Shown: one piece after another, positions 1 to 9,118 of the stretch | Layout of the letters: each line of letters starts with the position of its first letter | How positions within the stretch are numbered: position 1 is the stretch's first letter | DNA from: a virus | Length of the DNA stretch: 10,428 bases | Direction: 5' to 3' (one strand) | Virus genome (UHGV): UHGV-0062899 | Translations under genes and position numbers: made by a program | The notes under the pieces: model-generated | Told to the model about the DNA's origin: nothing | The model's input: only the letters and a program-made list of their open reading frames with translations | Databases searched by the model: none

Positions 1-1132
1 CCGCCCACCACTGCATCATTTCTCTGCGCTTATCGAAATACTGAGCATGGTTGTATATTCCGCGCACAGATCCTCCGTTGGCATGTGCCAGTTGCACTTC
101 AATAGCGTCAGCAGGCCATTCGTGCTCGTTCATAATCGTGCTGAATTCATGCCTGAATCCGTGACCGCTTTCCAGACCTTCATAGCCGATTTGTTTGATC
201 ACAAGCAGTACCGCGTTCTCGCAGATTGGCTTCTTCTTATCGTTGCGACCGGCAAAAACAAACTCTGATACTGGTTTGGTGATTGAGCTTAGCGTAGTGA
301 GAAGTTCAACCACCTGGTCTGACATAGGAACCACATGAATTTTGCGTCCCTTCATCACACTGGCGTCGATGGTGATAATCCTGTTTTCAAAATCGACGTT
401 CTTCCATAGCATGGAACGAAGCTCTTTTGTTCTGAGGGCTGTGTAGCGTAAAACTTTGGTCGCAATGAGCGATACGATGCTTCCTGAAAATGTTGCCAGT
501 GCTTTGTTAAATGCCGGGATCTGGTCTGCAGGAAGAAACGGGAAGTTTTTCTTGCGGTATCCCTTCATGGCGTCAGCAAGGTCAGGTGCCGGGTTATATT
601 TAGCCCTACCAGTGACAATAGCGTAACGGAAAACCTCTCCGCATCTTCTGCGGGCTTTATTTGCTCGCTCCATTGCACCGCGATCTTCAAATCTGCGGAT
701 TACTTCCAGCAGTTGCATCGGCTCAATCTCCTGAATTTCAAGGCCGCCGATGATAGGTAAAATGTCGTCATCAAACATTTTTGCAAGTTCAGTCGCATAC
801 CCTACTGACCATACTTGCTTCTTGTGCTCGTACCATTCCTTGTAAATCGCACTAAAGGAATTGTTGTTAGACGAAGCCTTTTTCGCCTTTACCGGATCGA
901 TGCCAACCGAGATGTCTTTCCTCGCAGTCCATGCCTTATCCCTTGCCTCCTGCAAAGTCATTAGCGGATATTTTCCTACGGTCAGGATTTTCTCCTTACC
1001 GTCAATCTTGTAGCGAAGCTGCCATACCTTTTTCCCGGATACAGGGACATAAAGGTACAGGCCATTACCATCGAGAAGGCGGTATGGTTTTTCTTTCGGC
1101 TTTGCTGCTTCAATCTGCTTAACAGTGAGCAT
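1..1132 (-). CDS. int: P4-type tyrosine integrase, partial (C-terminal end beyond window start)
   Basis: Minus-strand frame open from ATG at 1130-1132 to the window edge; absent from the ORF track because it runs off the end. Translation starts MLTVKQIEAAKPKEKPYRLLDGNGLYLYVPVSGKKVWQLRYKIDGKEK, the arm-binding N-domain pattern of P4/CP4-57-type integrases. Near the window start it reads HGFRHEFSTIMNEHEWPADAIEVQLAHANGGSVRGIYNHAQYFDKRREMMQWW, giving the H-x-x-R box and catalytic Tyr region. About 377 codons are present; the last ~30-40 are missing. Confidence 0.9.
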   Translation of the reverse strand, partial: MLTVKQIEAAKPKEKPYRLLDGNGLYLYVPVSGKKVWQLRYKIDGKEKILTVGKYPLMTLQEARDKAWTARKDISVGIDPVKAKKASSNNNSFSAIYKEWYEHKKQVWSVGYATELAKMFDDDILPIIGGLEIQEIEPMQLLEVIRRFEDRGAMERANKARRRCGEVFRYAIVTGRAKYNPAPDLADAMKGYRKKNFPFLPADQIPAFNKALATFSGSIVSLIATKVLRYTALRTKELRSMLWKNVDFENRIITIDASVMKGRKIHVVPMSDQVVELLTTLSSITKPVSEFVFAGRNDKKKPICENAVLLVIKQIGYEGLESGHGFRHEFSTIMNEHEWPADAIEVQLAHANGGSVRGIYNHAQYFDKRREMMQWWA

Positions 1133-2854: not shown

Positions 2855-3592
2855 CTATTTTCTGAATGGCTCAATCCCCGCCGCCAGTCTCTTCTTATAA
2901 TCCATATCAGAGCGTGCTTTAGATTCCTGAATTGGCGAAGGACTGTTATTTAACGCATGGTTAATACTGCCAGACAATGCACCGGGGAAAAATGCCAGTA
3001 CAGGATCGCTGAAAAGACTACTGTCAGCATCACTCAATAATTCACGTACAACCGTTCTGGAGTCAACGCGAAGTAACTTCATAAATTCATCTGATAATAT
3101 TCTTTCTGCATCACTGGTGTTTAATCCTGCCAGAGAATAAAGCCCAATGACGACAGACAATCGCTCACCAACCAGCGCTCTGAGGTCGTCTTTAAGAGAC
3201 TGGAGAAAAGAATCCGCAATCACTGACGAAAGTTTAAAATAAGCCTCTTTCGTCTGGCGTGCCTGGCTTGCGGTTTGAATCCGTAGATCAAGCACCGTCA
3301 GGCTCTGGGATTCAATCAACTCCTGGATTTTTTGAAGCTTTACCATCACCTGCGCTGCGGACAGTGCCGCACCATCTGTTTCCGCACTTTCAACGCCTCC
3401 GTTCCTGAGCAACGCAAGCCCCCAGTCACCGGCACTATGGCCCGCGTTTGACTCCACTTCTATTTTTCGCTTTGTCTCGCTCAGGTTGGCAAGCACCTTC
3501 TCTTCGTCTGAAAGAGACTTATAGGCACGGTCAAATAGCTCTTTCTGCTGCTGGTAACTCACGAGTAATGCCTGCATGTTGTTTTGTGTCAT
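2855..3592 (-). CDS. Alpha-helical protein, possibly a Sid-like external scaffold / capsid size-determination protein (245 aa)
   Basis: Real-looking ORF forming an operon with the two genes downstream. It is rich in L/A/E/Q/S helical segments. Its size (245 aa vs 244 for P4 Sid) and position upstream of an Ogr/Delta-like gene fit Sid, and a segment SAGDWGLALLRNGGVES loosely matches what I recall of Sid. Functional call is tentative. Confidence 0.45.
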   Translation of the reverse strand: MTQNNMQALLVSYQQQKELFDRAYKSLSDEEKVLANLSETKRKIEVESNAGHSAGDWGLALLRNGGVESAETDGAALSAAQVMVKLQKIQELIESQSLTVLDLRIQTASQARQTKEAYFKLSSVIADSFLQSLKDDLRALVGERLSVVIGLYSLAGLNTSDAERILSDEFMKLLRVDSRTVVRELLSDADSSLFSDPVLAFFPGALSGSINHALNNSPSPIQESKARSDMDYKKRLAAGIEPFRK

Positions 3593-3747
3593 CGTCCTGC
3601 ACCTTGTGATTATTGCGATGGGAAAATGATTGCAGGAAAAATAAATCCAGTCGCACCGTTAAGGTTGTCAGGGGTGTACTACACCTATAAGCATCATTCG
3701 TCCCGGACGGTTTGCGCAGATAATGCAGACAGGCCAAAGGAGGAACT

Positions 3748-3957
3748 ATGCCCACATTACCCAGAAATAACAGGTCGGTGCTGAAATCACTGAGGATCCC
3801 CAATGAACTGGATCAGTACATAGTGGCGATGAGCAAGCGAAGTGGTGCGAGCTATTGTCGTTGCCTGATCGAACTGGCCGGTGCGGGTCTGCTGGCTAAA
3901 GGGATCGGGCGAATAGCCGTTCCTGAGATCGATTCCTGCCGGAAACATCGAATATAA
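3748..3957 (+). CDS. Small ribbon-helix-helix-like DNA-binding protein (69 aa), candidate regulator
   Basis: AAGGAGG Shine-Dalgarno 4-5 nt upstream of the ATG. KSLRIPNELDQYIVAMSKRSGASYCRCLIELA fits the beta-strand/helix/helix pattern of Arc/MetJ/CopG-type proteins. It is the only plus-strand gene and is divergent from the morphogenesis operon. A GATAAT -10-like hexamer lies at 3719-3724. Confidence 0.55.
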   Translation: MPTLPRNNRSVLKSLRIPNELDQYIVAMSKRSGASYCRCLIELAGAGLLAKGIGRIAVPEIDSCRKHRI

Positions 3958-4126
3958 CCCCGCCCAGCCCGTACGAGCGGGTGTATTACACATCCAGCCG
4001 CATACGCTCATATGGTACAGATCTGCCCTTGAATCCTTCACGATCTAGCCTGATGGGTGCCGTTCCCTTCAAAAAAATTGATGCATTAACACAAAAAGAT
4101 GTGATCAACTACCAGATGCAATATAA

Positions 4127-4160
4127 GCCTCTCAGAGCCACGCTGAGAGGTGTTTTCATT
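4127..4160 (+). terminator. Rho-independent terminator (plus strand)
   Basis: GCCTCTCAG-AGCCACG-CTGAGAGGT: a 9-bp stem with terminal G-U and 7-nt loop, followed by GTTTTCATT. It lies 170 bp downstream of the RHH-like gene. Confidence 0.5.
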
Positions 4161-4253
4161 ATCCACCTTCCTGCATTACCCATCTATAAAACGCATCACA
4201 TCAAGCCGGAGAATAATCAGGATATGCCATCCTGTCTCACCTCTCAGCGCGCG

Positions 4254-4281
4254 CTTGTTCCCCCGCCTCGCCCGCACGCAG
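4254..4281 (-). other. cos-like site (P2/P4/186-type cohesive-end sequence)
   Basis: Minus strand reads GGCGAGGCGGGGGAACAAGCGCGCGCTGAGAGG. The first 12 nt equal the start of the P2/P4 19-nt cohesive end as I recall it (GGCGAGGCGGGGAAAGCAC), and a CGCGCTGA block follows as I recall for P4. A chance 12-mer match in this window is improbable. Confidence 0.5.
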
Positions 4282-4589
4282 AAAGCCCGCTTTTTTGTGC
4301 AAATGTGCAGTCCGGCCAAAGCCGTGCCCCGTCTGGGCTGGAGTGGCAAAAGTACCATCAAAAAAATTGTGCATTAGCGTGCAAATTTGTGCGGTGATTT
4401 TGCAGCGATCATTTTCACCTTAAAAAGAGCCAAACTCCGGCTGCGCCCGGGCCAGTTATGCACGCTGTTTTCGTGTTGCACAATGTTGATTTATTGCCCT
4501 CGGTGCACGCTGATTTGAAAGTGAAGTGTGAAAAAAGGGTTAACAGAAAAAGAGCTGTTTTACTGAAAAACTGAGGGGAGGTACGGAAG

Positions 4590-4860
4590 TCGGTTACAAC
4601 GGTTACGGGGGTGAAATAATATGCTTAACTCAATGATTTATATTAATTAAATTTGTAACCTTTGTGAGGTTACAAAAGGTTCCATTAAAGTTACACCCAA
4701 TAAAATCAATCAGTTAAATATCTAAGTTGTAACTTTAGATAAGGTTACAGAGTAACCCGATCGTAACCCGGTTGTAACTTTTCCAAGTTGGTGAAAATTA
4801 CATATAAATCAATATAATATATTTATATCTTTACTTTGTAACTTTTGTAACCCGTTTCCG
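4590..4860. repeat. Iteron array (about 12 copies of GGTTACAA/TTGTAACC, both orientations) around an AT-rich core; putative replication origin or integrase arm sites
   Basis: Copies at 4592-4599, 4601-4607, 4653-4660, 4668-4675, 4689-4696, 4736-4743, 4743-4750, 4751-4758, 4761-4768, 4772-4779, 4836-4843 and 4846-4854. An AT-rich stretch at 4795-4835 lies among them. The array is non-coding and sits just downstream of the int2/primase operon. Confidence 0.6.
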
Positions 4861-5127
4861 ATCCCCCCCCTCAAATTCTGGAAAATCTGCTTTTTTTTAA
4901 AAAAGGCTTCTTTTCTGTTAAATGTTTTGTCATTTCGCCAAATGTCCGGCAATGGCTCCACTCCGGCAAACACTGCCACTTACGGCAGTGCTGGCCATAC
5001 ATCGAGTACAGTCATTTTTAACCGTGCTGCAGAACGGTCAGAAACGACGGTGATCCGGGCGATGAGGGCGTAATGCAGAACAGCTAAAAACGAAGGGAAT
5101 ATATCTACGCTACGAGGGAAAGGGGTA

Positions 5128-5147
5128 AACCGGCCCGTCAGCCGGTC
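5128..5147 (-). terminator. Possible terminator hairpin directly after the P2-type integrase stop
   Basis: Minus-strand RNA has a GC-rich stem ACCGGC/GCCGGU with a 5-6 nt loop, followed by UUUACCCCUUUCCC. The stem is short. Confidence 0.35.
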
Positions 5148-5149
5148 AT

Positions 5150-6130
5150 TCAGAGGCTGATTCCGCCAGAAAGGGGATTGAGTGAAACGGCGTGTTGCAG
5201 ATAGTCAGGCGCAACATGCGCATAAACCATCGTCTGCTGGATACTGGCGTGACCAAGAATTTGTTGTAAGGCGATAATATTGCCCCCGTTCATCATGAAC
5301 CAGCTTGCAAACGTATGGCGAAGCACATGCGTAGCCTGCCCGCGCGGCAGGTCCGGCTTAACCTCCCTAAGCCGCCCGCAAAAGGCTTCATAGTCAACGC
5401 TGAACAGCGGCCCGCAATCGCGGGTTTTGATCTCTTTTTCCAGTTCATCCGATATTGGGATCGTGCGCCTCTTCCCGTTTTTGGTTTTAAGAAAAGTTAC
5501 GCGTCCGTGGTTAATCTGCTCTCCCCGCAGTGTGCTGCCTTCTCCCCAGCGTGCGCCGGTGCTGAGGCACAAAAGAGCAACACGGCGATCGTCACCTGTA
5601 AGGGTATTCAATAATCGACTGATTTCCGATTTAGTAAGGTAGGTCATTGCTGCTGGTTTCTCCCTCAATGGCTCCAGCCCTTTACAGGGGTTATCAGCCT
5701 TGAATTCATCCAGTTTTATCAGGGCGCTGAACATACCCGAAAGGCGATATATATCACGGTTGACGGTGGCCGTGCTGATCCCTGAATCCAGCCGCTCGCT
5801 GCGATGCTGCGCGATGATTCGTTTAGTCAGCCGGTTAACTGCCGGGTTGCCCAGGGCTCTGATCGTTTTATCTAGGTGTCGTTTTTCGGCGTTTCCGTTC
5901 TCCAGCGTCCGGCCATACAGCAGCCACCAGATGTTTAGCAGCTCGCTGAGAGTACGCCGATCGGTGCTGGCGCCCAACCACTCTTTTTTATCGGCATTCG
6001 CCATAACATACCGTTCAAAGAGCGCTGCCTCCTGCTTTCTGTCAAAAATCCTGCGAAAGCGCTTACCGCTGCGCCCTCTGGCATAAATATCGACTTCATA
6101 ACGCCCGTCAGCCCGTTTTTTAATGGTCAT
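5150..6130 (-). CDS. int: P2-Int-like tyrosine recombinase, complete (326 aa)
   Basis: N-terminus MTIKKRADGRYEVDIYARGRSGKRFRRIFDRKQEA matches my recollection of P2/186-type integrases. Catalytic set is complete: LSTGARWGE (Arg I), KTKNGKRRTIPIS (Lys), HVLRHTFAS (His/Arg II), LGHASIQQT (His III), MVYAHV (Tyr). GAGGAA Shine-Dalgarno 8 nt upstream; start is 16 nt after the primase stop. Confidence 0.85.
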   Translation of the reverse strand: MTIKKRADGRYEVDIYARGRSGKRFRRIFDRKQEAALFERYVMANADKKEWLGASTDRRTLSELLNIWWLLYGRTLENGNAEKRHLDKTIRALGNPAVNRLTKRIIAQHRSERLDSGISTATVNRDIYRLSGMFSALIKLDEFKADNPCKGLEPLREKPAAMTYLTKSEISRLLNTLTGDDRRVALLCLSTGARWGEGSTLRGEQINHGRVTFLKTKNGKRRTIPISDELEKEIKTRDCGPLFSVDYEAFCGRLREVKPDLPRGQATHVLRHTFASWFMMNGGNIIALQQILGHASIQQTMVYAHVAPDYLQHAVSLNPLSGGISL

Positions 6131-6145
6131 ACTATTGTTCCTCTG

Positions 6146-8815
6146 CTACTGAGCGGCCGGCACTTTAAAAATCCAGCATTTCACCTGCTCAGGCTCTTTC
6201 GGGCCAGCCTCTCCACGCCCCTGATTTGCCAGTCTGGAAACCTCACTTCTTACCGTCTTCTGGCCCGTACACGGCCGCATACGCCCGTTTTTCAGGTAAT
6301 CCTGAATTTCTTTCGCCGGGGGAATATTTACACGCTGCATAGCAGCTATACGCATCAGGTGAGGGAAGTTAATGGCGATCTCGTCGCGATTCTCTTTCCC
6401 AAAATGGTTGACGCCGAAACGCTCCAGGCTATTCAGATAATCAAAGGCATCCCAGAACTCACGAACCACAGGGATATCCGCTTCCAGCGATTTAACCCGC
6501 TCCACCGCCATCACAGTAAGCTGTTCACAGGTGCGATCGAGGCGTTCTGCGGGAATATCCAGAACACAGGTCAGCGCCCTTACACATGCAATCATCTGGG
6601 CATGATTTTTGGCAATTCGGATATGACGAATTTCAGAGTGTTGTTCCAGCCTGATTTTTTCGGCCTCATACACCTCCTGAATAATCGACAATACTGCGCT
6701 TTCCCTGCATACCGCCCGGATCATAAAACCAGATACCTGATCGACCGGCAGACGCTCAAGGCGTTCAGCCGCCGCCCTGGTCAGCGATGACTGACGGCGT
6801 TTATCCGTAAACACATGGATAATACGTTCCAGTATCGCAGGTGAGGCGTTAACGGTGGCATTCTGCGCGATGACAATGCTGCCCCTGAATGGCGGCTCTC
6901 TGGTTTCATTGTTGTTGGTCTTAACACCAATCGCCCGTAATCCGCGCCCGTTGTAGAGCGGTTTTAGCTCATCGAAGTCAAAGCCGCGCAGCTTCTTCGT
7001 GTCTTGGGCGCGATCGCCTTCAAGCAGCACGACGGGAAGGTTTGAGACCTGGGCGAAGTTACGATAAATGCCCGCAACAGAACCCTTTGAAGGGTCAATT
7101 CCCTCATAGCTGTCCCTGCCACAGAGCCGCCAGAGAAAATCAATCAGCGTGGATTTACCTGTTCCCGGTTCACCGATAATCTCCAGAAAGGGAAAGCTGG
7201 CCTGCTGTTCGCGTATCTGTTCAACGAAGAATGTTCCCAGCCAGAATGCCAGCGCGACATAGCCATTTTCACCAAAAGCCGTCCAGATATCATCGGCCCA
7301 GCCTGACGAAAGCGAATTATCATCAGAATTGATATTGATTAACGGGGATCGGCTCAGTGTCTTGATATTCATCCCACCAATCTCAAAGTAATCTTCGCTG
7401 TTCAAGGAGTAGACCTTCCCGTTATGTATCGCCAGCTTATTGAATACCCATGCCCGCCAGTCCCTGTTATACCCAATAAAGTCCTGCGTCCTGACCTCTT
7501 TGATCCGGGGCAGATCCTTTTTAATCAGACCATCGAGCTGCTGGCTGGTTCCGGTATAGAGCGCACCTTTTGCCACATGGAGGAGACGCTTTTTAAACTC
7601 AGACGCAGAAGAGATCTGCCCCGCGGTAAAGGAGTCTTTCACTGCGGGTGTATTGCCTGGAAAGGCGATGCGAAAATAATACCAGGACTCGTCTGTAACT
7701 TCTGAACGCATAAAATACAGCGGTGCGGGGTGACAATTGGCTATTTCCTTAATTGCTCCAGACTCTTTCAATGCAATACTTCTGGCTTCACGTTCATCAT
7801 TAACTTTTTTATCGTTAAGGATACGCTCAACGGCCTTCATATGGCGCTCAATGTCCAGCTTAAACCAGTACACGCAGTTCCCGTATTCGAAGTGAAACTC
7901 AGGGCGTTCATTATGTTCAAACATCCGAAGCGCCTTATCTCGGGCGCTTTCCGCCAGCAACAGATCGCCGTAATAGCGGTACTCTTTCTGGTGTCGTCTG
8001 GTCAGCTTTCCGGTAAGGTGGAGATCGTTCCAGTCAGCTTTATTGCTCCCCTGTGAAGGAAGTGCGGCAACGGCTTTCCAGCCTTGTTCACGGCTCCGCG
8101 CCACATGGCGACGTATGGCTGTTTCCCCTGCTTTCCCATTGTCCAGCGCCCAGACAAGAAACGGCTTTTCTTTGCCCTGGAATTGTTCAGCAAGCGCTTT
8201 AAGCGCGGCTTCCGGGTAGTTTCCGGCAGTCATAATGGAAACGGCAGGGGTGCCGTTCTGATAAAGGCTAATGGCGTCAAAAATCCCCTCAGTTAGCCAG
8301 ATACAACTGACTTTAGCCAGATCCAGCGCTGGCGGAACCCACCAGTGACCGGCGTACTTACCGTGGAAGTTAGCCTTTCGATCAAAGCGTTCTGGCTTGT
8401 CGATAATCCGCTCCCACCAGATACCATCAGACAGGGCAAAGCGAACCGTTGCGCTTCCCATGCCGCCCTTATGGTAGCTTTCCTGCGTATAGCAGCCCTT
8501 TAAGCAGGTAGTATCCAGCCCTCTGGCTTCTCTCAGATAGGCTTCCGCAGCGGCAAAAGGCTGCTCAGGCGTGCTCTCATAGCGATCTGACCATGAGTTA
8601 AATAATTCAGGATAGAGCGATTTTACCGACAGATCAGCGCCGCAATTATTTTCCCGGCCACAGCGCAGCACCCAAGGATTTTCCATGCTGGTAAAGAGTT
8701 CTTTCTTGTTACATTCAGGGCAAATACCTGAGCGCAGATAGCCGTTCTGCTCTTTAAACTGGTAATCATGCACCAGTCGTTTTATGATTTCGGGGCGTAG
8801 ATCTTTTCTGTTCAT
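6146..8815 (-). CDS. Bifunctional primase / P-loop NTPase replication protein (zinc-ribbon + Toprim + Walker A/B), P4 alpha-like (889 aa)
   Basis: N-terminal C-x2-C-x16-C-x5-C zinc ribbon (CPECNKK...RCGRENNC); Toprim-like motifs IWLTEGIFDAISLY and LVWALDNGKAG; Walker A GEPGTGKST with downstream VVLLEGD (Walker B-like). AAGGA Shine-Dalgarno 7 nt upstream of the ATG. Confidence 0.85.
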   Translation of the reverse strand: MNRKDLRPEIIKRLVHDYQFKEQNGYLRSGICPECNKKELFTSMENPWVLRCGRENNCGADLSVKSLYPELFNSWSDRYESTPEQPFAAAEAYLREARGLDTTCLKGCYTQESYHKGGMGSATVRFALSDGIWWERIIDKPERFDRKANFHGKYAGHWWVPPALDLAKVSCIWLTEGIFDAISLYQNGTPAVSIMTAGNYPEAALKALAEQFQGKEKPFLVWALDNGKAGETAIRRHVARSREQGWKAVAALPSQGSNKADWNDLHLTGKLTRRHQKEYRYYGDLLLAESARDKALRMFEHNERPEFHFEYGNCVYWFKLDIERHMKAVERILNDKKVNDEREARSIALKESGAIKEIANCHPAPLYFMRSEVTDESWYYFRIAFPGNTPAVKDSFTAGQISSASEFKKRLLHVAKGALYTGTSQQLDGLIKKDLPRIKEVRTQDFIGYNRDWRAWVFNKLAIHNGKVYSLNSEDYFEIGGMNIKTLSRSPLININSDDNSLSSGWADDIWTAFGENGYVALAFWLGTFFVEQIREQQASFPFLEIIGEPGTGKSTLIDFLWRLCGRDSYEGIDPSKGSVAGIYRNFAQVSNLPVVLLEGDRAQDTKKLRGFDFDELKPLYNGRGLRAIGVKTNNNETREPPFRGSIVIAQNATVNASPAILERIIHVFTDKRRQSSLTRAAAERLERLPVDQVSGFMIRAVCRESAVLSIIQEVYEAEKIRLEQHSEIRHIRIAKNHAQMIACVRALTCVLDIPAERLDRTCEQLTVMAVERVKSLEADIPVVREFWDAFDYLNSLERFGVNHFGKENRDEIAINFPHLMRIAAMQRVNIPPAKEIQDYLKNGRMRPCTGQKTVRSEVSRLANQGRGEAGPKEPEQVKCWIFKVPAAQ

Positions 8816-8854: not shown

Positions 8855-9118
8855 TCACTCTTTGTCTTCTTGTACAGCATGTCCCAGATATTTGTCACAA
8901 ATCCCCAGGCGTTTAACTTCCTGTAGTACTGATGAAATATCTTCACTGATATAACTGAAAATATCCGGTATCCATAAGAGTGGCATCGCGTTAGCTTCAC
9001 ACTGGCGAATATGTAAATGCATCTGAAATGCGACATTCCTCGCGCGATTCAGTTTGTGATAATTCTCAATACTGAGGTGAGACGGATTAACACTCTGAAT
9101 ATGATTACTTGTTGTCAT
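8855..9118 (-). CDS. Hypothetical protein (87 aa)
   Basis: AGAGGA Shine-Dalgarno 5-6 nt upstream of the ATG; same strand as the replication operon; no family recognised. Confidence 0.5.
   Translation of the reverse strand: MTTSNHIQSVNPSHLSIENYHKLNRARNVAFQMHLHIRQCEANAMPLLWIPDIFSYISEDISSVLQEVKRLGICDKYLGHAVQEDKE

Follow-up and report, generated by a model that had tools for sequence, protein, structure and literature searches.

What are twelve short repeats, packed into less than 300 bp beside a primase operon, doing in a phage satellite? In this work we have examined this question in the virus genome UHGV-0062899, a stretch of 10,428 bp which we call the window, and specifically in the repeat array at positions 4567-4882. 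The array lies 290 bp downstream of a gene for a 326-aa P2-type integrase, which in turn comes after a gene for an 889-aa primase-helicase, and the window belongs to an 11,627-bp satellite island at a tRNA-Arg gene in the chromosome of Escherichia coli KCJ3K291. The initial annotation had proposed that the repeats are iterons which, together with unwinding DNA, form an origin served by the neighbouring primase, or that they hold arm-type sites for the recombinase. Comparative evidence favours the first of these proposals, as the array is polar and travels with primase homologues whether or not an integrase gene accompanies them. We consider it probable that the array serves the satellite as its origin of vegetative replication. 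The best reading of how primase and array function together, which we draw by analogy, is that they would work like the origins of the pathogenicity islands of Staphylococcus aureus (SaPIs) and the phage-inducible chromosomal islands (PICIs), or like the crr region of P4.

Layout of the repeat array

The repeat cluster is real and non-random. The region 4593-4851 contains 12 GTTAC cores, five on the plus strand (4593, 4602, 4669, 4690 and 4744) and seven on the minus strand (4655, 4729, 4752, 4763, 4774, 4838 and 4847), with the consensus rGTTACAa, and this bears out the earlier count of about twelve short repeats in both orientations. The densest 295-bp span of the window holds 12 copies, whereas 1000 dinucleotide shuffles averaged 2.5 by the same measure and never exceeded 5; when only the AT-rich stretch 4500-4950 was shuffled, the mean was 1.2 and the maximum 6. 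Over the entire window GTTAC or GTAAC occurs 27 times compared to an expected 13.4 +/- 3.6, a number which none of 200 shuffles reached, and 9 of the 14 window matches to GGTTACAA with at most one mismatch fall within 4592-4852. There is also a degenerate thirteenth copy (GGTTCCAT, 4678-4685), whose counterpart in a relative is a good repeat.

The array as a whole forms a quasi-palindrome of about 300 bp with a polarity that is read on the minus strand, the sense strand of the primase gene. In this direction a CGGAAA cap comes first and is followed by two direct repeats and an AT block, then by the central cluster, a second AT block with a site resembling that of integration host factor (IHF), two inverted repeats and a TTTCCG cap. 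The primase-proximal cap (GGGGGGGGATCGGAAAC, 4853-4870, minus strand) consists of a G-run and then TCGGAAA. The distal cap (GAGGGGAGGTACGGAAGTC, 4573-4591, plus strand) is degenerate here, where relatives show GGGG...TCGGAAA, and in these relatives the mirror-image TTTCCG(A) with a C-run closes the far end of the array. The proximal direct-repeat pair (GGTTACAAAAGTTACAA, 4836-4852, minus strand) has a 9-bp phase, and the same pair in the same phase is found in every related array. Its mirror is the distal pair (GGTTACAACGGTTAC, 4592-4608, plus strand), also in 9-bp phase; both pairs point inward and are set apart from the central eight copies by the AT blocks. The symmetry extends into an imperfect inverted repeat of 32 nt (I2), in which 4575-4606 pairs with 4838-4869. 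The central cluster (4653-4781) comprises eight repeats and the degenerate one in a layout kept in relatives: the primase-sense strand shows three forward copies in an 11-bp phase and then copies in either orientation, two near-palindromic pairs among them.

The AT-rich core described at first was only partly confirmed. The DNA is strongly AT-rich, with GC dropping to 0.31-0.37 over 4501-4900, but in place of a single core there are two blocks. Block 1 (4795-4835, 90% AT), the least stable 41-mer of the window (z 4.3) and a candidate unwinding element, holds a conserved TTGAT/ATCAA core, and block 2 (4614-4652, 87% AT) corresponds to the third least stable 41-mer (z 3.6). In the middle of the array, at 4704-4716 on the plus strand, AATCAATCAGTTA is a perfect match to the IHF consensus WATCAANNNNTTR; the equivalent of this putative site (TAACTnATTGAT) is kept in enterobacterial arrays. 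A further IHF-like site (AATCATTGAGTTA, 4638-4626, minus strand) lies within block 2. Its ATCA....TT does not vary among the 14 aligned arrays, which range from Enterobacterales to Burkholderiales, and the ATCA..TT of this distal block agrees with the core of the IHF consensus. The other invariant columns of the alignment are the T and A positions of the repeat and CGGAAA, which is kept across hosts even where the repeat sequence differs.

Could such a quasi-palindrome be an RNA or DNA structure element? We rejected this candidate because directly repeated copies also change in concert between relatives, which pairing does not explain, and because a search of Rfam with 3500-5300 at E up to 1 gave no match. 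The single-strand fold of the array is significant (z -5.9), as would be expected of any quasi-palindrome, and the 'terminators' predicted within the array are the repeat palindromes themselves.

The array in relatives and beside integrases

To which of its neighbours does the array belong? We scanned viral contigs and then species-representative genomes by primase alignment, which gave 438 relatives, and retrieved 80 loci. The same architecture, with the same caps and polarity, stands beside primase homologues in at least 22 loci, P2-like phages included, and the hosts include Enterobacterales, Vibrio, Alkalilimnicola, Mycoavidus and Paraburkholderia. The array of the window is colinear, copy by copy, with that of the P2-like phage ESSI2_ev239 and with 13 other arrays. 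A nhmmer profile of 13 arrays matched window positions 4882-4567 with an E value of 4e-75 on the minus strand and 1.5e-24 on the plus strand; in relatives it finds one array per element, always better on the primase-sense strand. What differs is the repeat, whose copies all change together (GTTACA, ATTACA, RTCACA, CTTACT, GAGTAAYA, GGTGAG, CTTAC).

The order of primase, integrase and array seen in the window is shared by four satellites (loci L011-L014). In five others (L008, L015-17 and L025) the array follows about 180 bp after the primase gene with no integrase, and in two more (L019 and L021), which have the ATTACA repeat and also no integrase, other cargo occupies the slot. Where no integrase gene intervenes (L008, L015-17, L025 and L091), the distance from the primase stop to the start of the array is about 180-210 bp. 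The repeat is CTTACT in a Vibrio element, GAGTAAYA in an uncultured phage, GGTGAG in Alkalilimnicola and CTTAC/CTAAC in Paraburkholderia. In the Mycoavidus element (L072, 11862-12188), from a fungal endosymbiont of the Burkholderiales, the primase is 46% identical to ours and yet the repeat is GTTACA, as in the E. coli satellite; this could be either convergence or a repeat specificity retained over large divergence. Searching in reverse with the array DNA, we obtained matches in 20 E. coli genomes, all of them intergenic or unannotated, and the three inspected were all beside a toprim primase. A sequence-independent signature (a cap, a 5-mer twice, its reverse complement twice and a mirrored cap) was present in 11 loci and in none of 294 shuffles, and it revealed no loci beyond those known. 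Pairs of CGGAAA...TTTCCG in high-GC loci were discarded as coincidences in coding DNA, L028 excepted.

Satellite synteny thus runs from helix-turn-helix (HTH), Icd-like, small and epsilon genes through the primase, a slot and the array to the Ogr, 245-aa and capsid genes, with an integrase in the slot in only some elements. To either side of the array the gene content varies, while array and primase are constant. This bears on the idea that the array is a centromere-like partition site or an operator array, which would maintain a plasmid state or regulate the flanking operons. Partition sites and some operators likewise consist of short repeats clustered in two sets, the array overlaps with weak promoter-like matches, and a 507-nt terminal redundancy in one relative fits a circular or tandem form. 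However, the promoter-like matches are at chance level (4 compared to 2.5 +/- 1.7 in shuffles), no ParA, ParM or ParB-like gene was found in the island, and the flanking genes vary freely around the constant pair, and we regard a partition or operator function as highly improbable.

A more specific question is raised by the integrase. Could the array consist of arm-type or accessory sites of an attP-like (phage attachment) or resolution site for the 326-aa protein, with the AT blocks and IHF sites serving its intasome? The protein, encoded by a 981-bp gene between primase and array (5150-6130, minus strand), matches the P2 integrase at full length, with arm-binding N-terminus and catalytic residues (PDB 5c6k, E 9e-86); its identity is 82-83% to the integrases of SEN4, SEN5 and phiT5282H and 65% to those of P2, Wphi and L-413C. 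P2-type attP sites use IHF and are found downstream of int. The array has the same position relative to int here, its outer short repeats are paired like arm sites, its IHF-like sites lie in AT-rich DNA, no other attP-like site is visible for this integrase, and P2-type integrases of three lineages adjoin the array in E. coli satellites. The attP sites of related integrases nevertheless look different. In L-413C, SEN5, phiT5282H and ESSI2 they come directly after the int stop and have two plus two arm repeats around a core: L-413C has two copies of TGTCCACA in 11-bp phase, the core and two more, SEN5 and phiT5282H have TGTCTACA in the same layout, and the arm repeat of ESSI2 is GTCCACA. The arm repeats in relatives of the 326-aa integrase begin within about 20 bp of the stop, whereas here 12 copies in both orientations follow a gap of 290 bp. 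Neither the SEN5 or P2 arm motifs nor the shared attP core were found in or beside the array, which thus differs from a P2-type attP in the number, orientation, sequence and position of its repeats.

Nor does the array depend on the presence of an integrase. The same repeat and architecture occur without one in the five and two satellites named above (groups B and C). Among the P2-like phages, RSY1 and Dobby lack a recombinase beside the primase, and in ESSI2 it is part of a separate lysogeny module. In ESSI2_ev239 the array and attP are separate sites about 1.4 kb apart, with one gene between them. That array carries the caps TTGAGGGGG...ATCGGAAA at one end and TTTCCGAT at the other and has the same AT blocks, and every copy reads RTCACA where the window has GTTACA. 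Since this phage has both sites, with RTCACA in every array copy, the array is a unit distinct from attP whose repeat has changed in concert. The integrases beside arrays in E. coli satellites fall into three lineages which are 52-59% identical and yet all adjoin the repeat GGTTACA, whereas the integrases of P2 and SEN5, at 67% identity, already differ in their arm motifs. In L091 the integrase gene (4980-5945) comes after the array, which is therefore upstream of int; other array-side integrases are at 6482-7483 in L092 and 6373-7374 in L093. Finally, the spacer after int in the window is homologous to the primase-array spacer of about 200 bp in L008 and L091, where no integrase intervenes, from which we conclude that int was inserted between primase and array. 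Judged from its sequence context, the 326-aa integrase is inserted cargo that lies outside the origin, and it is very unlikely that the repeats are its arm-type sites, as the initial annotation had suggested in second place.

The island thus contains a second integrase, an intact P2-type protein without a recognisable attP, although a P4-type integrase is already present at the tRNA gene. Three such lineages, none with a recognisable attP, were inserted independently and directly adjoin the array on one side or the other in E. coli satellites, whose P4-type integrase was already in place. Is the array perhaps also a site or landmark for captured P2-type integrases, a hub of replication and recombination at which the integrase resolves replicated multimers at or near the origin or acts on the att sites of the helper prophage? 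We give this additional role a small chance. If multimers were resolved in this way, the products would be monomeric circles, as packaged by P2-type terminases.

The primase-helicase and possible modes of origin function

The presumed trans-acting initiator is the 889-aa primase-helicase (6146-8815, minus strand), whose N-terminus is Zn-ribbon-like, whose C-terminal region is helical, and which contains a Toprim domain and a Walker-A NTPase. It matches Pfam Toprim_2 and Toprim_3 and, end to end, phrog_1139 'DNA primase' (E 0). Its closest phage relatives are primases of P2-like phages, namely ESSI2_ev239 (56% identity), Ralstonia RSY1 (47%) and the Pseudomonas Dobby/phiCTX group (43%). The expected homology to P4 alpha was not found: BLASTP gave similarity in the Walker-A region (E 0.007) and in Toprim (E 0.23) only, and P4 was absent among the phage matches listed. 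The placement of this protein in the P4 alpha family therefore had to be given up. A sequence search of the PDB gave no match. With the full-length protein as query, more than 2,400 homologous clusters were found; the C-terminal 220 aa alone returned 5 fragments, and the full-length query was used instead. At the BLAST level the primase is the sole protein, besides integrase and capsid, which the island has in common with the compared part of ESSI2_ev239. The C-terminal part of about 230 aa is the most divergent in the family. Residues 670-889 were modelled with a predicted local distance difference test (pLDDT) score of 92 and end in a helix-strand-helix-helix-strand-strand unit; the fold matches of this 220-aa model are weak, the longest alignments being to SaPIbov1 Rep and to the Cch helicases of SCCmec.

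How does the pair of primase and array compare to known replication modules? SaPI origins contain 6-12 short iterons just downstream of rep around an AT-rich centre, with at least two iterons per side in opposite directions, and SaPI Rep is a self-loading helicase which reads the iterons through a C-terminal winged-helix domain and is fused to a primase in some islands (PMC9371898). This module is also found in the PICIs of Gram-negative bacteria, whose pri-ori segment is able to sustain replication of a plasmid (PMC6092414). The satellite resembles these islands in that 12 copies with a 5-7-bp core lie downstream of a primase operon, in that the pairs at 4592-4608 (plus) and 4836-4852 (minus) face inward around AT-rich DNA, and in that a helper-dependent chromosomal island encodes primase and helicase in one polypeptide, as in PriRep5; the fold alignments of the C-terminal model to SaPIbov1 Rep and Cch are a weak further likeness. 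It differs in its initiator family (Toprim_2, phrog_1139), which has no sequence match to solved Reps, in having two AT blocks where SaPIs have one, in its central eight-copy cluster, and in its conserved CGGAAA/TTTCCG caps and IHF-like sites. Unlike the SaPI and PICI origins, this type also serves bona fide P2-like phages.

P4 is likewise a satellite of a P2-type helper, and its genome is of nearly the same size as the island (11,624 and 11,627 bp). In the P4 record the alpha gene is followed at once by crr, whose 8-bp repeats occur in both orientations and whose first pair has a 9-bp phase, as here. This position directly after the primase gene is found in L008, L015-17, L025 and L091, while the window has int in between and keeps the homologous spacer. 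The epsilon-like derepressor upstream of the primase is another likeness. The spacer between the upstream gene and the array (4871-5149, minus strand) includes a hairpin at 4965-4996 (GGCAAACACTGCC / GGCAGTGCTGGCC, inverted repeat I13), which is kept in L008 and L091 directly after the primase gene; by analogy with t-alpha, which precedes crr in P4, it may be the operon terminator. On the other hand, reading P4 ori and crr directly we found the octamer TGTTCACC in both, in place of rGTTACAa; the initial annotation had remarked that the motif differs from the P4 iteron. P4 ori and crr are 4.5 kb apart, whereas each element here has one array and the window has one GTTAC cluster; P4 has two 120-bp direct repeats and not a dyad; and the 889-aa primase, similar to alpha at the level of Walker A, is not of the alpha family.

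Plasmid origins of the iteron type (pSC101, R6K, RK2) follow the same general logic as the array, in that initiator sites are repeated and combined with an AT-rich unwinding element and a site for IHF. Their iterons are direct repeats of 17-22 bp, read by winged-helix Rep proteins (RepA, pi, TrfA) which have no helicase or primase activity, and these origins have DnaA boxes and load the host DnaB. The repeats here are, in contrast, 7-8 bp long and in both orientations, the array has no DnaA box, and the neighbouring protein is itself a primase-helicase.

We infer the parts played by primase binding, IHF, melting and the mode of replication as follows. Derepression triggered by the helper would lead to synthesis of the 889-aa primase-helicase from the operon which ends just upstream of the array. 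The C-terminal region of the protein may then recognise the rGTTACAa repeats, with the inward-facing outer pairs and the central cluster nucleating protein that flanks both AT blocks. IHF or a similar bending protein at the ATCA..TT sites could fold the unit of about 300 bp, and the AT blocks would melt. The primase-helicase would act as its own helicase loader, probably with one ring on each side, and its Toprim domain would prime. Bidirectional theta replication might in this way produce circles, which a P2-type helper could package through the cos-like site about 320 bp away.

Several observations weigh against an origin served by this primase. No DnaA box was found in the array, and the nearest similar 9-mer, with one mismatch, is outside it at 4159. 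The search for the motif in related elements, as first suggested, had a divided outcome: besides the loci with an array, about 60 of the 80 species-representative primase loci have none within +/-10 kb by profile or signature, and the array-primase linkage is therefore demonstrated for only part of the family. The loci without an array are mostly in high-GC hosts and have primase identities of 44-49%. For ESSI2-like prophages no array near the primase would be expected, since its place beyond attP puts it at the far end of the integrated prophage. Furthermore, we detected no co-variation of the repeat type with primase segments (60-aa bins), a test of specificity columns gave one or two candidate columns only and no signal, and the C-terminal region of the ESSI2 primase, which goes with RTCACA, is as similar to that of the 889-aa protein as are those of the GTTACA-type group B. 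Lastly, since the array lies near cos and a P2-type integrase recurs beside it in E. coli satellites, it may have extra roles.

Might the array, then, be an origin whose repeats are read by another protein of satellite, helper or host, which recruits the primase-helicase? The missing co-variation and the weak fold evidence for a DNA-binding C-terminus would agree with this, and several small conserved open reading frames (ORFs) without an assigned function lie upstream in the operon. But these small ORFs are undetectable in ESSI2_ev239 and in other array-bearing phages, where only the primase is common to all, and a host factor cannot explain why repeats differ between elements of the same host genera. 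We consider a separate reader unlikely, and recognition by the primase-helicase itself is the reading which we prefer.

The island around the array and what the array would mean

The island is bounded by a 22-nt direct repeat, which is the 3' end of tRNA-Arg(CCT). The two copies are 11,627 bp apart, one at 1292-1313 of the window (8893-8914 of the chromosomal locus L001) and the other at 20520-20541 of L001, and the array lies intact in the middle of the integrated island. A megablast search with the region found no plasmid, and KCJ3K291 was the sole exact match among 5,426 complete E. coli genomes; the same region gave no match to phages, distant mode included. From the tRNA gene onwards the island contains a P4-type integrase gene (outside the window), an HTH gene, an Icd-like gene, four small ORFs, the epsilon-like derepressor gene, the genes for the 889-aa Toprim protein and the 326-aa recombinase, 1.2 kb without annotated genes in which the array lies, two hypothetical genes, a gene for a P2-family major capsid protein and an Ogr/Delta gene. 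On its left the island is followed by intS (window 1-1131), a gene of a neighbouring prophage remnant, and the satellite is therefore in tandem with another integrated element at tRNA-Arg.

The cos-like sequence mentioned above (GGCGAGGCGGGGGAACAAG, 4254-4272, minus strand) is of P2 type, and its first 12 nt are identical to the P2 cohesive end. It falls within an unannotated ORF of 138 aa (3981-4397) which matches no family and probably does not represent a gene. Could the array belong to this site, as an accessory packaging element bound by the small terminase of the helper? In lambda, cosB combines R sites with an IHF site. The array has IHF-like sites, lies about 320 bp from the cos-like sequence, and in phage L009 stands beside ORFs of portal and terminase size. 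A cosB-like element has, however, a fixed place by cos, whereas the distance from array to cos varies from about 0.3 kb here to about 2.1-2.4 kb in L015, L017 and L019, and we conclude from this variation that the array is not part of cos. What is fixed is its polarity and its proximity to the primase, and the repeat differs between satellites, which have no terminase of their own, and phages of the same genera. A packaging function is thus extremely unlikely.

The other flank of the array is variable too. In Pectobacterium satellites (L015, 13326-15054) a RmrT/RmrA defence pair, assigned by PADLOC, lies between the array and the cos-like site, which makes this flank a hotspot for cargo and defence genes. 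The satellite also has its own gene for a P2-family major capsid protein and one for a conserved 245-aa protein without a family match, which is possibly a scaffold (1780-2817 and 2855-3592, minus strand). The same pair of genes is present in L011-L014, L019, L021 and L091-L093; the capsid protein is about 24% identical to that of phage ESSI2, and about 41% identical between satellite groups. The island has Ogr/Delta and neither Sid nor Psu. Classical P4 remodels the capsid protein of its helper, whereas this satellite encodes one itself.

Two further copies of the satellite were observed. A Logan assembly (L095) contains a 96.7%-identical island in which the primase-integrase-array block is kept, while its positions 239-2466, compared with 19083-20342 of L001, carry another P4-type integrase (469 aa), an extra 273-aa gene and another tRNA-like att; the integration module has therefore been swapped independently of the block. 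A metagenomic contig with a 92%-identical satellite (L012) has the exact 507-nt terminal redundancy referred to earlier (1-507 = 12208-12714). The redundancy starts inside the array and points to a circular or tandem form whose unit length is about 12.2 kb. The contig was binned with a metagenome-assembled genome of the Bacillota, in which it was probably misplaced.

In kind the element is familiar, an iteron origin beside its initiator in a phage satellite, and the general picture of how such origins work is unchanged. The family of arrays with its conserved dyad architecture is widespread and apparently undescribed; our literature searches found no description of this type of origin, although their coverage was incomplete and an earlier description is possible. 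For genome annotation the array is a landmark which separates the core from the cargo slots in such islands. If our reading is true, the array would be the cis-acting origin for a large, uncharacterised family of primase-helicases (more than 2,400 protein clusters, 438 species-representative matches), whose members are labelled in databases only as 'toprim domain-containing protein'. This family would then replicate many P2-like (Peduoviridae) phages as well as P4-sized satellites with a P2-family capsid gene of their own. The CGGAAA cap, the paired repeats, the AT blocks and the IHF-like sites together form a conserved scaffold in which the short repeat can be swapped, and the array may serve as a system for studying the evolution of initiator specificity and the ways in which satellites evade, or make use of, cross-talk with the replication of their helpers.

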